DNA of 64,000 bases, taken from the IMG/VR virus record IMGVR_UViG_3300017780_003084, positions 26,330-90,329 of that record. One strand, given 5' to 3'. Below are positions 37,195-41,261 of this stretch, piece after piece. The notes below the pieces were generated by a model. That model saw nothing but the letters and a program-made list of their open reading frames with translations, was not told the origin of the DNA and made no database searches. The translations under genes were made by a program, and so were the position numbers. The stretch comes from a virus. Lineage: Duplodnaviria > Caudoviricetes. The first letter of the stretch is position 1. Every line of letters begins with the position of its first letter.

Positions 37195-37207
37195 TAAGTA
37201 GGATTAT

Positions 37208-37243
37208 GCCAAGGACTAAACCTCCTTGGTATTTTTATTTTCA
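37208..37243 (+). terminator. Rho-independent terminator
   Basis: GCCAAGGA...TCCTTGGT followed by ATTTTTATTTT. Confidence 0.8.
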
Positions 37244-37251
37244 CAAGGGGC

Positions 37252-37280
37252 TTGACAATAGCGTAAGTGTGGTTTATACT
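37252..37280 (+). promoter_or_regulatory. sigma70-type promoter for the packaging operon
   Basis: TTGACA-17 bp-TATACT. Confidence 0.8.
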
Positions 37281-37310
37281 TCATATTATAAGTAAATAAG
37301 CAGGAGATGT

Positions 37311-37685
37311 ATGAGCGACGTAGATAATTCAGTAGGAGAGATAGTACGGACAGGTGTTCAGAGTAAGAAGAATCCTATTACTGTTTTCAAAAGGGCTTTG
37401 AACAAACATAGCAAAACGGCAATTGATTATTTAGCTTCTATTATGGATGACCCATCAGCTTCTAGGAAAGATCGTATGGAAGCTTCTAAAGAGTTACTAA
37501 AATTACATGCAGATATGCTGAAAGCAGAATCAACTGAGAAAGCCCGTAATAAGGAATTTGCAGCAAAACATCATGAGTTGCTTGTAGGGATACAGCGTAA
37601 TGGTGGTGTTATTGTGGATGATAATGATGAAGACGATGAAAGTCAACCACTTTTAGATTTTGAAAATATCAGTGAGATTGACTGA
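37311..37685 (+). CDS. terS: Probable terminase small subunit
   Basis: Helical, size 124 aa, acidic tail, first gene of the operon containing terL; assignment is positional. Confidence 0.55.
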   Translation: MSDVDNSVGEIVRTGVQSKKNPITVFKRALNKHSKTAIDYLASIMDDPSASRKDRMEASKELLKLHADMLKAESTEKARNKEFAAKHHELLVGIQRNGGVIVDDNDEDDESQPLLDFENISEID

Positions 37686-37689
37686 TCAT

Positions 37690-38245
37690 AAAGAATATAG
37701 CTCACTTGTAAGAAGGAAAGTGTACTTAATCGGGTTAGACTAGTTTTACTCCTCCCGAAGAACGGACTTCTCGGCAACACCCTCCGTCTTTGTACAGCGC
37801 TATTTAATAAAGTACCTTATGGGACTTGGAGCCTTTTGGAAACAAAAGCAAATATGTGGTTGCAGCCACCTTATAGGATTGAGGAGTTCCTTATAAACCT
37901 CTTTAGATTGTAAATACAACAGCTCTCCGTCATTCTCCTGCCATGCACTCCTCATGGTTCTCCTGTGACGTTGTAGAGCTGTTCTGTTTACAATTTTCGC
38001 AACGGTGTTTCGTCCCATATCTGGTAATTGGAGCCGTAAGTATCGTGGAACATTGTTGTATTCGCTATTTGCGAATAGCGAATAAGTCCACATAGTCCAC
38101 TCTAAGATTTCATGCTTGGAGATTCGTGCTATGTGGGTGAGTTTTATTATGTCAGGGTATTGGAGAGGACAACCTCACAGAATCTCTAGTGCTTCTGATA
38201 TAATGGAATTTATTAACAGTCCTTAAGGACACAGCTTGTGAGGAG
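37690..38245 (+). ncRNA. Large structured non-coding RNA candidate (~560 nt)
   Basis: Many long stems with G-U wobbles on the plus strand (e.g. 37907-37926/37975-37994, CCACATAGT/GCTATGTGG, 38145-38155/38195-38205), a GAAA tetraloop, a long-range TATGGGAC/GTCCCATA pairing, and no credible ORF. Confidence 0.7.
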
Positions 38246-38251
38246 CGAAAT

Positions 38252-39223
38252 ATGACGAAGAGAATACATACCACAAAACCGCAGATCAAAGTCGGGGATG
38301 TTTTTAAAACTAACTGCTATGGGGATGTAGAAGTTATTGAGTATCTTGGTGCAAATAAAATTAAAGTAAGATTTGAGGTTGACGGATATGAAAGATATTC
38401 TACATCTGGTAACTTGCAAAAAGGCAAGGTGAAGAATCCAAACATACCAACAATCACACACGCAAAACGATTGACAAAAACTGTCAGTATAGGTGAAATT
38501 TATAAGAACACGAATGGATTACCATTTAAAATTGTAGAATACACAGATGCAAGTAATGTTAAAGTTGAGTTTGAATCAGGCTACATGACCACATGCACTC
38601 TTCAAAGAGTTCGTGAAGGGAATATCTCTGACAACTTATCTCCTTCAAGATTTAAAGGGTATTTAGGTACATTGCAAGGTATTGAAGTTAAAAACGTGGC
38701 AAAGACTAAAGAATATGCTCACTGGTCAAGTATGTTAGCAAGGTGTTTCTGTGAAGAGTATCGCAATAAATATCCTACTTATGAAGGTACAATGGTTTGC
38801 GATGAGTGGTTAAATTTTACTGTTTTTGCTAAGTGGTGCAGAGAACAACCTGAATTTTTACTAGGTCACAAGGTTTTCCTAGACAAGGATATCCTCAACA
38901 AAGGGAATAAACTCTATAGTACAGAAACATGTACTTTTGTGCCACATGATGTAAATACTTTATTTACTAAAGCTGATGCAAGTAGAGGTAAATATCCTAT
39001 AGGAGTATCCTACTGTACAACTCGAAATGTAATAACTGCTTGCGTTCGTATTGACAAACGGACGAAGTATTTGGGACGGTTTGAAAGTGCAACTGACGCT
39101 TTCTACGCATACAAGAAGGCAAAAGAATCTTATATTAAAGAAATTGCTGATAAATTTAAGTCGGTTATTTCAAAGGAATGTTACTTAGCTATGTATAAAT
39201 ATGAGGTTGACATAACAGATTAG
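38252..39223 (+). CDS. Free-standing HNH-type homing endonuclease with C-terminal AP2-like domain
   Basis: Two N-terminal beta repeats (VGDVFKTNCYG.../IGEIYKNTNG...), WSSMLARC, VCDEWLNF, LDKDILNKGNKLYS.ETCTFVP..VN, and C-terminal PIGV...KYLGRF...AFYAYK. Confidence 0.75.
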   Translation: MTKRIHTTKPQIKVGDVFKTNCYGDVEVIEYLGANKIKVRFEVDGYERYSTSGNLQKGKVKNPNIPTITHAKRLTKTVSIGEIYKNTNGLPFKIVEYTDASNVKVEFESGYMTTCTLQRVREGNISDNLSPSRFKGYLGTLQGIEVKNVAKTKEYAHWSSMLARCFCEEYRNKYPTYEGTMVCDEWLNFTVFAKWCREQPEFLLGHKVFLDKDILNKGNKLYSTETCTFVPHDVNTLFTKADASRGKYPIGVSYCTTRNVITACVRIDKRTKYLGRFESATDAFYAYKKAKESYIKEIADKFKSVISKECYLAMYKYEVDITD

Positions 39224-39230
39224 AGGTAAA

Positions 39231-41261
39231 ATGATTAAAAAAGAAAGAGTAAAGTTTCAGCCTTGTAGTGAAAAGCAGAGGCTGATTCTCATGGATAACA
39301 CTACAGATGTTATTCTTATTGGTGGTTAAAATGCTCTGCCTCCAATTCAAAAACAATTCTCTAATTAGGTGGAACCCCTTGAAATAGGGCAATACCTAGC
39401 GAAGCCTAGAAATAGGAACGTGTGACGGTCAGCCAAAAGGCGTAGCATCAAGTGATGTGAAACGGGAATCAGGCGAAAGCTGGAAGATATGACCTCATCT
39501 GTATAGTAATATACAGCAGTTTAATAAACGGCAGTTACTTAACGAGAAACTGTGAAGACATCCGCTTGGGAGCTGGCGGGGGCAAATCGAGGATTTGCCT
39601 TACAAAAAATTTAGATGGGATTAAAGACCCTAAATTTAGATGTGTAATCCTAAGACGTTTTGAACCAGAACTCAAGCGTCAGGGTGGATTAATAGATGAA
39701 TCTAAGAATGTTTATCCACACTTCACAAAAATACCTTACAAAAGCCAACAGAAATTGTGGGAGTTCCCTTCAGGTGCAACAATAGGATTCTCTGCAATTT
39801 CTTGTGATGATGACTTAGGAAGTTGGCAAGGTAGTCAATTAACGCGTAAATATTGCGCCTTTATTTAGAGATAGATAAAGCAAACTCATTGAACTCAGGG
39901 GAAGCATAGAAAATGTTATCCTGATCTAAGCCTAAAACAAGCAATATTGTTAGTGATAGGAAAGACCAACGACTATCCCGAAAGGGAGTACACTCAAGCG
40001 AGTGGAAGCGGTGAGAGTCCTCCTCTGAGGATTATGATATAGTCTGAACTATATAGGGATATATAGCAGCTTGAATAAAGCGAGATGAGTCTAGCGAACT
40101 CATTTGAACATTTTGATATTAATTGATGAAGCAGCAGATAAGTGGACTGAGAAGCAAGTGTTGTTCTTGCAATCACGTTTGCGTACAGTGGGTTCTGATA
40201 TCCACCCACAATTAATTATGTCTTGTAATCCAGACCCAAATAGTTTCTTATTCGATTGGGTGAAATTCTGCCTAGACGAAGATACAGGCGTACCAAAAGA
40301 AGGGACAGAACATATTATTAGATGGTTCTGTGTAGAGGATAACAAAGCTAAATGGGCTACAAGCCCTGAAGAGTGTTATGAACTATATGGGGCTCCTAAG
40401 AATCTTATCTATGCTCATGGTATGACAGAAGAGCAAATGAATGCATTCTCTAGAGAAGAGAAGATGCGGTTATTCATGCCGAAGAGTTTCAGATTTATCC
40501 CAACTGGAGTATTTGATAACGTATATCTTTTACCTCCGAAAAATAATAGTTATTTAGCGTCTCTACTCTCTCAACCTTATGTAAATCAGTTAAAATTTTT
40601 ACATGGAAGTTGGACTGCACGAGAGCTTGGGAGTTCTTACTTCGACAGAAAGTGGGTTCAAATTGTTGACCAGCCTCCTGTAAATGCCACAGCTAGGATA
40701 CGTTCTTGGGACTTCGCTTCAGAAGAAAAGACAAAAACTAACAACCCTGACTGGACAGCAGGTGTAAAAATGTCTAGGGATAGATATGGCATTTACTATA
40801 TCGAGAATGTTGTTAGAGTACAGATGCGGATTGATGGTGTTTTAAAAACTGTTATTGAGACTGCCAAAGCTGATGGTGTTGCTGAATGTGAAGTTTGTAT
40901 TCCAATTGACCCTGCAGCAGCAGGTAAGAGTAGTGCTCACTTCTTTCAGAAAGTATTGGCAGAGAATGGTATTCCTTGCAAGAAAGCTCAATCCTCTGGT
41001 CACAGCAGTAAGCTCACAAGATTTAAGCCGTTTTGTGCATTAGCTGAGAGTGGTAGTGTTCGTGTGGTTAAAGGTGACTGGAACGATGCATTCTTTGCAG
41101 AGCTTGAAGCATTTTCTGGTGACAAGGCAATTGAGAGAACCCAGAAGAACGATCAAGTTGATGCTTGCTCAGATAGTTTTAATCAATTAGCAAGACAATT
41201 GCAACTACCTGTGTTTTCTGTACCCTCCTTAACAAAACCCTCACCAGTCCCAACAATATAA
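39231..41261 (+). CDS. terL: Terminase large subunit, three exons: 39231-39326, 39569-39847, 40116-41261 (506 aa spliced)
   Basis: Splicing restores Walker A ILIGG|GAGGGKS and Walker B WQGSQLTR|ILIDE; nuclease motifs WDFAS, IPIDP and DQVDA in exon 3. Confidence 0.92.
39327..39568 (+). mobile_element. ORF-less group I intron 1 (242 nt, IA2-like)
   Basis: 5' exon ends in U pairing with IGS GCCUCC (U-G at the splice site); P10 GCUCU/GGAGC; P7.1/P7.2 hairpins; P7 GGUCA/UGACC; terminal G at 39568. Confidence 0.9.
39848..40115 (+). mobile_element. ORF-less group I intron 2 (268 nt, IA2-like)
   Basis: P1 GCGU/GCGC with U-G; P10 AAUAU/AUAUU; canonical ACGACUA (39969-39975) and GAUAUAGUC (40036-40044); terminal G at 40115. 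Confidence 0.9.

Follow-up and report, generated by a model that had tools for sequence, protein, structure and literature searches.

Among the regulatory RNAs of virulent phages, the function of only very few is known, and the RNAs of the T4 tRNA region have gone unexplained since the 1970s. Among the latter are RNAC and RNAD, two non-tRNA RNAs whose roles are unknown (PMC3014915). Pseudomonas phage PAK_P3 produces two late small RNAs of ~100 nt near its tRNA genes, both of which rank among its most abundant late transcripts (PMC4933390), and one of them, sRNA2, is located between two tRNAs and just upstream of a gene with a terminase-type Walker A motif (PMC4933390; KC862299 annotation). The T4 protein RegB destroys the GGAG sites of early mRNAs (PMC3014915). 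The small RNAs of the cuckoo/CcsR type carry anti-Shine-Dalgarno (anti-SD) motifs in their loops, and CcsR is processed out of the 3′ UTR of an mRNA that encodes a small protein (PMC4615179, PMC8034643). The predicted hairpin described here, H1, shares its position with T4 RNAC/RNAD and PAK_P3 sRNA1/sRNA2, that is, beside a phage tRNA cluster and on the same strand, a class that is positional and not a sequence family.

Organization of the terS-terL gap

The source genome, that of an uncultured phage, is a complete IMG/VR virus record of 90,329 bp (IMGVR_UViG_3300017780_003084), and the window, the whole stretch of DNA that was analyzed, is a 64,000-nucleotide part of it. The plus strand carries, in this order, a tail-fibre-like gene, a terminator-like hairpin, a sigma70-like promoter, a terS-like gene, the gap under study, an HNH endonuclease gene that forms the 3′ boundary of the gap, and terL. 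The features of the locus are as follows.

37252-37280, plus strand: sigma70-like promoter TTGACA-17-TATACT of the unit of terS, RNA slot and terL, matching 11/12 consensus positions
37311-37685, plus strand: terS-like gene, 124 aa, weak match to phrog_641 (terminase small subunit)
37686-38251, plus strand: terS-terL gap, 566 nt, a string of hairpins
38252-39223, plus strand: free-standing HNH homing endonuclease gene, 323 aa (phrog_953, E 5.5e-59)
39301-39516: group I intron 1 of terL (RF00028, 41.7 bits)
39838-40066: group I intron 2 of terL (RF00028, 81.5 bits)

The promoter that the preliminary description had placed at 37252, upstream of the gap, is sigma70-like, and CTTGACA-17-TAnAnT was kept upstream of terS in 11/11 relatives; judged from its sequence, it is probably active and strong. 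The terS-like protein is 45-90% identical among relatives, and the large terminase is of the PAK_P1/FelixO1-like kind, with at most 42% identity to those phages. Two group I introns (Rfam RF00028) interrupt the terL gene, both matching inside terL and outside the gap, and a terL exon hidden in the gap was ruled out, as exon 1 starts at 39231. Comparison of the gap's nucleotide sequence with 50,697 phage records returned no match, nor did a companion protein search with terS, and the terminator scan found no intrinsic terminator after H1 or H3.

Protein genes within the gap were rejected as well. The minus-strand ORF at 37800-38093 (97 aa) had no Pfam or PHROG match and was not conserved: a comparable frame occurred only in locus L009, where the DNA is 92% identical, the minus-strand frame of L006 was unrelated, and six other loci had no ORF of at least 70 aa there. 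Moreover, the substitutions under this ORF were stem-compensatory and not synonymous. Two plus-strand ORFs of 50 and 36 aa were likewise unconserved and without a family.

Folding of the gap gave -179.3 kcal/mol on the plus strand (z -5.9), and 0/100 shuffles folded as well, versus a z of -1.9 on the minus strand; the earlier assignment of the RNA to the plus strand was thus right. The best fold is a string of hairpins, H1 to H5, with smaller hairpins upstream of H1. All stems listed in the preliminary description were found in the sequence at their places, and most were also part of the minimum-free-energy fold, namely the TTTTG/CAAAA stem (37834-47), the GTGGT/GCCAC stem (37856-69), the long hairpin (37905-37996), the 10-bp palindrome (38060-83), and the nested hairpin (38088-38136). 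The wobble-rich arm was recovered too (38137-38213), but it comprises 30 bp and not 22. The pairing GTACTT/AAGTAC (37722/37810), however, lies outside the best fold, and AAGTAC is missing in L007, the sole locus that shares the module. The proposed pseudoknot of 37818-25 with 38012-19 fared no better in the comparison: the words TATGGGAC and GTCCCATA do exist, and GTCCCATA does not vary among the five loci with H2, but its partner TATGGGAC was found only in the window and was absent from 4/4 of the other H2-bearing loci, so that this pairing was rejected.

Consistent with the earlier failure to recognize a known family, Rfam covariance models run against 37200-40400 and 37686-38251 at E<=10 matched no family in the gap; the only matches inside it were chance ones to miRNAs or CRISPR repeats (E 0.24-9.8). 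When the whole window was compared with Rfam at the gathering score, ROOL, GOLLD, OLE, and RNase P remained unmatched in the gap. These data support a gap that is non-coding, selected as a plus-strand RNA structure, and absent from Rfam. It is divided into the following modules.

37686-37810, plus strand: module A, small hairpins; present elsewhere only in L007 (96% identical)
37811-37855, plus strand: module B, with TATGGGAC and a TTTTG/CAAAA hairpin; unique to the window phage, relatives having no homolog
37856-37904, plus strand: module M2, hairpins GTGGT/GCCAC and GAGG/CCUU; common to six loci
37905-37996, plus strand: H1, a long hairpin of ~92 nt with three anti-SD-like motifs; universal in 11 loci
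37997-38059, plus strand: H2, optional, 14-bp stem with the invariant word GTTTCGTCCCATATCT; only in L004, L006, L008, and L009
38060-38083, plus strand: H3, optional 10-bp perfect palindromic hairpin; L003, L004, L006, and L022, degenerate in L009
38088-38136, plus strand: H4, nested hairpin; essentially unique to the window phage
38137-38213, plus strand: H5, 30-bp G-U-rich hairpin of the homing-endonuclease cassette

Relatives were collected by terS searches with a single sequence and a profile, which yielded ten related loci, one of them new from a terS scan of metagenomes. Their terS-terL gaps measure 310-880 nt and are mosaics, in which modules occur in differing combinations in 10 relatives and H1 alone is present in all; the other modules were each found in 1-7 loci. 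In two relatives the gap is only ~310-380 nt, with other neighbors around H1. Module M2 also occurs in L003, L004, L005, L008, L009, and L022; L007 and L010 have a tRNA-Gly gene at its position, and in L009, M2 and H1 are separated by a tRNA-like sequence. The place of H4 is occupied in 9 relatives by a two-hairpin leader module before terL or the endonuclease cassette. H2 varied too little in sequence among its carriers for covariation to be informative, and H3 is a single copy in the window, which speaks against a repeated operator. No enclosing long-range helix was conserved across the relatives' gaps.

The relatives also placed tRNA genes in this interval. A tRNA-Trp, a tRNA-Gly, or a degenerate tRNA-like sequence was found in the gap of five of the eight close relatives, and phages with 63-72% terL identity carry 1-9 tRNA genes in the slot upstream of terL. 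Neither ARAGORN nor the Rfam tRNA model detected a tRNA in the whole genome of the window phage, and one relative likewise has none; a derivation of the hairpins from decayed tRNAs was rejected, as the gap gave no tRNA-like signal at E<=10. H1 lies directly 3′ of the encoded CCA end of a tRNA-Gly or tRNA-like sequence in L007, L010, and L009, and in the genomes G002 and G004 the end of the tRNA is the start of the H1 match. The mosaic, the tRNA content, and the lack of a conserved enclosing helix thus indicate that the gap is the tRNA/small-RNA slot of this clade and not a single ornate RNA.

The gap is therefore a chain of independent hairpin modules shuffled by recombination, and the unity of the ~560 nt that the preliminary description had proposed is unsupported, since the modules occur independently in relatives. 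Its observation that nearly the whole region folds was real and beyond chance; its interpretation as one RNA was not. A likeness to the large ROOL or GOLLD RNAs also falls away, as only the ~92-nt hairpin is common to all relatives, and nothing points to the suggested role in packaging, the tRNA/small-RNA slot accounting for the location. A caution follows for similar cases: an intergenic region that folds well need not be one ornate RNA, and relatives can resolve it into mobile modules.

The conserved hairpin H1

H1 was detected with an HMM and then with a covariance model, with one copy in each of the 11 loci, and an alignment of the 11 sequences (A2) was evaluated for covariation, as the preliminary description had proposed for homologs of the whole region. 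The hairpin covaries and is kept in all 11 loci. Seventeen of its 28 predicted pairs showed compensatory changes, with substitutions on both sides, and 97.7% of the cells were paired, compared with 38-50% when the partners were slid by 1-3 columns; the slid controls contained 0-5 compensatory pairs, and none of 500 shuffles reached the observed values. The paired cells included 33 G-U but only 2 A-C combinations, the plus strand was the more stable one in 11/11 homologs, and the covariance model scored 97-104 bits on the plus strand versus 19-31 bits on the minus strand, with a single copy per genome. The excess of G-U pairs, the plus-strand stability, and the model scores together indicate that selection acts on the plus-strand RNA of H1 and not on duplex DNA.

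Three motifs stand out in this hairpin.

37934-37939, plus strand: 5′ internal-loop motif UCUCCU, predicted ~100% unpaired in all homologs
37946-37952, plus strand: apical loop CACUCCU, predicted unpaired; CUCCU in 11/11 homologs
37959-37964, plus strand: 3′ internal-loop motif UCUCCU, with the same sequence as the 5′ motif

The two UCUCCU motifs face each other in a symmetric 6x6 internal loop above a lower stem of 25 bp, and relatives show CCUCCUCCU, CUCCUU, or CUCCUCCUU in the apical loop. While the stems vary in every segment, the three CUCCU motifs are fixed, and the CUCC motifs were predicted to be ~100% unpaired in the 11 homologs, compared with a mean of ~35% of positions unpaired. H1 is a phage hairpin RNA that is supported by covariation, is not yet catalogued, and has loops of the anti-ribosome-site type.

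Beyond the 11 loci, a scan with a degenerate H1 pattern recovered only 8 known IMG/VR phage contigs and nothing from genomes of bacteria or archaea. Phages more distant within the group carry weak H1 homologs or analogues in the slot, with unrelated stems and CCUCC-bearing loops. In the tRNA slot of the wider clade, nine long hairpins with unpaired CUCC were found in 7 of 11 loci, and equal-length coding controls gave one such loop among 28 comparable hairpins (1/28). A minus-strand covariance-model match of 29 bits in L061, far from the slot, was considered unreliable. Taken together, we hold it highly probable that the gap is a modular slot and that H1 is a selected plus-strand RNA hairpin within it.

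Candidate targets of the H1 loops and alternative explanations

Ribosome sites were scanned in the 30 nt before each start, with gene calls for the whole genome made by a crude heuristic of our own, and were compared between leftward genes (n=102), which comprise the bulk of the small and replication-type genes, and rightward late genes (n=37). GGAG preceded 79/102 leftward but 8/37 rightward late genes (p 4e-9, Fisher), that is, 77% of the leftward non-structural versus 22% of the rightward late genes, and AGGAGA or GGAGAA preceded 39/102 versus 2/37 (p 1e-4, Fisher). Many leftward sites read AAGGAGAA, the exact complement of the internal loops of H1, and the rightward late genes have mostly AAGGA(A/T) sites. 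The median predicted duplex of loop and site was stronger for leftward than for rightward late genes (-10.0 versus -6.2 kcal/mol; p 6e-6, Mann-Whitney). The split between strands was replicated in two complete relatives, G002 and G004 (45/59 versus 16/43 and 56/70 versus 10/37), and was weak or not significant in four wider-clade genomes (G005-G008).

Furthermore, GGAGAA sites were more frequent in four genomes with a UUCUCCU loop (72/239) than in three with other CUCC-containing loops, for example, CCCUCC (21/154; p 1.5e-4), a comparison that is not phylogenetically independent, three of the four genomes being close relatives. That the loop word and the ribosome-site word covary across the wider clade is therefore only suggestive, and the loop words vary too little for a proper covariation test of loops and targets. 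CUCC and GGAG form the generic Shine-Dalgarno pair, so that any pyrimidine loop is expected to be complementary to many start sites; moreover, the terS, endonuclease, and portal genes also carry GGAG sites, and the H1 RNA would thus not be strictly selective. The conserved promoter, in turn, resembles a host sigma70 promoter and so does not fix when H1 would be made relative to its presumed targets.

Given these sequence features, we infer a mechanism in which transcription of the slot would start at the conserved promoter before terS and follow the plus strand, and H1 would be released from the terS/tRNA precursor by those nucleases that in relatives mature the neighboring tRNAs. The loops of the released hairpin would then base-pair with GGAG/AGGAGAA ribosome-binding sites, and since these sites lie mainly on leftward non-structural genes, H1 would lower the translation of those genes, largely sparing the AAGGA-type sites of late structural genes. 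This full statement, a modular slot with a processed H1 that masks GGAG-type sites, is put forward tentatively, as a serious possibility of which we remain slightly more doubtful than convinced. It is open to test, given three predicted exposed anti-SD words and a plausible target class, GGAG-type sites occurring on non-structural genes about three and a half times as often as on late genes. A broader version, in which H1 acts as a timer that, as a co-transcript of the packaging genes, shuts off the leftward replication and non-structural genes with the late genes still translated, and in which hairpins of the same design are general in the tRNA slot across 85-94-kb uncultured phages, is conceivable but doubtful. 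If true, the timer would be an RNA counterpart of T4 RegB.

The alternative that survives best is that the hairpins serve processing or protection only, as RNase III or RNase E sites, mRNA stabilizers, or a Rho shield, with CUCCU being incidental or a binding site for a protein such as S1. An untranslated stretch of more than 500 nt within an operon, nearly all of it paired, fits this account, as do the 14- to 30-bp stems of H1, H2, and H5, which are typical of RNase III substrates; the 25-bp lower stem of H1 could equally be an RNase III site, H1 adjoins tRNA 3′ ends in relatives, and interchangeable modules are expected if the fold alone matters. Nevertheless, it leaves unexplained the three fixed CUCCU loop copies amid varying stems, the recurrence of CUCC-loop hairpins with unrelated stems in the slot of the wider clade, and the match to one class of ribosome sites. 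We therefore consider processing alone rather unlikely, though a reading to be taken seriously beside the masking of GGAG-type sites by H1.

A second alternative is control in cis, in which the H1 loops or other pyrimidine runs of the leader would pair with the ribosome site of whichever gene follows, terL or, in the window phage, the endonuclease gene, and so hold down its translation from the long transcript. This brings in the 3′ end of the gap, in which two further elements were noted.

38196-38204, plus strand: TGATATAAT, extended -10-like word (TGnTATAAT-like) in the 3′ arm of H5, read from the sequence
38240-38245, plus strand: GAGGAG, ribosome-binding site of the endonuclease gene, examined by fold prediction

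H5 was present in 5/5 loci with the endonuclease gene and in 0/6 loci without it, and the endonucleases of these loci differ in their N-terminal halves. Five of its pairs showed compensatory changes, and its fold was more stable on the plus strand (-25 to -30 kcal/mol) than on the minus strand (-9 to -21 kcal/mol). H5 is thus a separate element, the leader hairpin of a mobile homing-endonuclease cassette. The word TGATATAAT, whose counterparts in relatives are TGACATAAT or CGATATAAT, is possibly the endonuclease gene's own promoter; the promoter scan did not pick it up because its -35 region is poor. For the full leader, the GAGGAG site was predicted in all five loci to be 79-96% paired, its partners being pyrimidine runs farther upstream; for a transcript that begins downstream of H5, it was predicted to be ~50% free. 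Long-range fold predictions thus hint, weakly, that the site may be masked on read-through transcripts.

These predictions are what favors control in cis, together with L059, in which only ~10 nt separate the end of the H1 homolog from the next gene's ribosome site, and with the T4 genes I-TevI, e, soc, and 49, which are controlled likewise (PMC3014915). The predicted partners of the site, however, lie in M2 or module A and not in H1, and are not the same from locus to locus; the next start lies anywhere from ~10 to more than 600 nt from H1, and long-range minimum-free-energy pairings are unreliable. Control of the next gene in cis is thus unlikely.

The remaining two explanations are both highly improbable. 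A single large ornate RNA of ~560 nt, with peripheral domains that are optional and with a possible role in packaging, would agree with a whole gap that folds well on one strand, such RNAs can have optional domains, and the lack of an Rfam match would make it new; but no closing helix or pseudoknot is conserved, only 92 nt are common to all relatives, two of which have gaps far shorter than 560 nt, one module goes together with a mobile endonuclease gene, and tRNA genes interrupt the region in relatives, so that the comparison appears largely to refute this reading. A DNA-level site in the inverted repeat, recognized by the terminase (pac) or another protein through TCTCC repeats about one helical turn apart, would lie next to terS, has four TCTCC/CTCC words 10-14 bp apart, and could count the palindrome H3 in its favor, whereas the 33 G-U versus 2 A-C cells and the systematically weaker minus-strand fold show that selection is on one RNA strand and not on DNA as a duplex or a cruciform.

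H1 and its neighbors among described systems

Some known RNAs could be set aside. The large ornate RNAs ROOL (RF03087) and GOLLD (RF01998) and the phi29 pRNA are, like the gap, phage-borne, non-coding, and highly structured. However, the gap matches neither the ROOL nor the GOLLD model and has no conserved multi-domain architecture; its conserved unit measures 92 nt, compared with 400-800 nt in large ornate RNAs. This kind of RNA was rejected for the locus, as only H1 is common to the 11 loci and long-range helices are not shared. A phi29-type pRNA was rejected too, given no Rfam match and a terminase of the PAK_P1/FelixO1-like kind in a genome that is not phi29-like, and so was an identity of the gap with OLE, RNase P, or a group I or II intron, none of which gave a covariance-model match at E<=10.

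Closer to the 3′ part of the gap is the leader of T4 I-TevI, in which, as with H5, a long hairpin lies directly upstream of the start of a homing endonuclease (PMC3014915). The -10-like word in the 3′ arm of H5 and the predicted masking of the site recall the control of I-TevI, but H5, unlike that leader, has no ribosome site inside the hairpin.

With the small RNAs of PAK_P3 the likeness of H1 is one of place. The H1 covariance model (R1) found no homolog in the PAK_P3 genome, and there was no sequence similarity; furthermore, PAK_P3 sRNA2 has a tRNA T-loop-like stretch, which H1 lacks. T4 RegB is an analogue of the proposed H1 by its aim, being a phage device directed against the GGAG sites of one temporal class of genes. 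RegB, however, is a protein that cleaves the site, whereas H1 would be an RNA that masks it, and the two are not homologous.

By design, the nearest relatives of H1 are the cuckoo small RNAs of Alphaproteobacteria (RSs0680/CcsR1-4, alpha-r14/SmelC397/NfeR1; Rfam ar14). Similarly to H1, they combine a conserved pyrimidine loop word with variable stems and carry several copies of the word per RNA, and CCUCCUCCU occurs in the apical loop of H1 relatives. The layouts differ: H1 is one long hairpin with two motifs in its internal loop, whereas cuckoo RNAs consist of 2-4 adjacent similar hairpins, an arrangement not found in the gap, where the loops of H2-H5 are without an anti-SD motif. The words differ as well, (U)CUCCU in H1 versus CCUCCUCCC in cuckoo RNAs; the window has UCUCCU twice and CACUCCU, so that the anti-SD core of CCUCCUCCC is common to both but the full word is not. 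Furthermore, H1 is phage-borne and sits beside tRNA genes, whereas cuckoo RNAs are encoded on alphaproteobacterial chromosomes or plasmids, and the Rfam ar14/CcsR models found no match in the gap at E<=10. H1 would thus resemble the cuckoo RNAs by its proposed mechanism and is not a member of their family. If that mechanism were confirmed, phages would be using a small-RNA design in the style of their hosts to switch translation between gene classes, and the non-tRNA RNAs of phage tRNA clusters, of the kind seen in T4 and PAK_P3, would gain a function.

Leaders and hairpins upstream of terL and the endonuclease genes

A leader of approximately 115 nt, which comprises the plus-strand hairpin H5 and a ribosome-binding site, was common to five loci, where it precedes homing endonuclease genes and is 88-90% identical.

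Loci carrying the H5 leader
Window 38137-38251
L003:5635-5759
L022:1979-2103
L007:6116-6226
L018:2150-2260

The endonucleases behind this leader have unrelated N-terminal halves (323/324-aa type versus 269-aa and 310-aa types). Such a pattern suggests that ORFs have been swapped behind a shared H5 leader.

A different, two-hairpin leader module, starting with (U)GAGGnGAGAGG, was found 5′ of terL or of the endonuclease cassette in nine relatives, among which its stems covary; it was absent or unrecognizable in the window and L009.

Loci carrying the two-hairpin leader module
L008:5600-5688
L010:992-1071
L018:2090-2165
Also L003-L007 and L022

In L008 and L010, the module also holds a tiny ORF (MATKVLAGS...), and the differences between the two appear synonymous; the ORF may be a micropeptide or a structural coincidence.

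The H2 hairpin contains a 16-mer, GTTTCGTCCCATATCT (window 38009-38024), that was invariant in all five H2-bearing loci (window, L004, L006, L008, and L009), with variable loop sequence next to it. No partner or function for the 16-mer was found in these loci.

Gene boundaries and ribosome-binding sites

Features flanking the terS-terL gap
37206-37232, terminator-like hairpin plus T-run, directly upstream of the terS promoter
39231-41261, terL, three exons separated by two group I introns
39301-39516, intron 1, without ORF (41.7 bits, under the gathering threshold)
39838-40066, intron 2, without ORF (81.5 bits)

The terminator-like hairpin, also present in L008, closes the tail-fibre-like gene preceding the terS promoter. 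Intron number at the two terL places varies among relatives (0, 1, or 2), with Rfam matches in L003, L004, L005, L007, and L008. Across the whole phage genome (window -26071 to 63543), and likewise in two complete relatives, two ribosome-binding-site classes occurred: GGAG/AAGGAGAA predominates in leftward non-structural genes, and AAGGA(A/T) serves rightward late structural genes. One cluster of 14 small rightward genes, at genome 42.8-47.6 kb (window ~16.5-21 kb), lacked GGAG entirely.

tRNA-like sequences and synteny with PAK_P3

Two relatives carry sequences in the slot that matched the Rfam tRNA model.

tRNA-like sequences in the terS-terL slot
L009:5578-5646 (48.7 bits)
L005:5468-5535 (35.6 bits)

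ARAGORN recognized neither, and both are candidates for decaying or atypical tRNAs. In Pseudomonas phage PAK_P3, sRNA1 and sRNA2 were defined by RNA-seq (PMC4933390). In this region (KC862299 85348-86699, equal to L073:1349-2700), they flank the phage's tRNA genes directly upstream of gp164, whose product has a terminase-type Walker A motif at its N terminus. This sRNA1/sRNA2-tRNA-gp164 order is the same synteny as in the terS-terL slot of the window phage.
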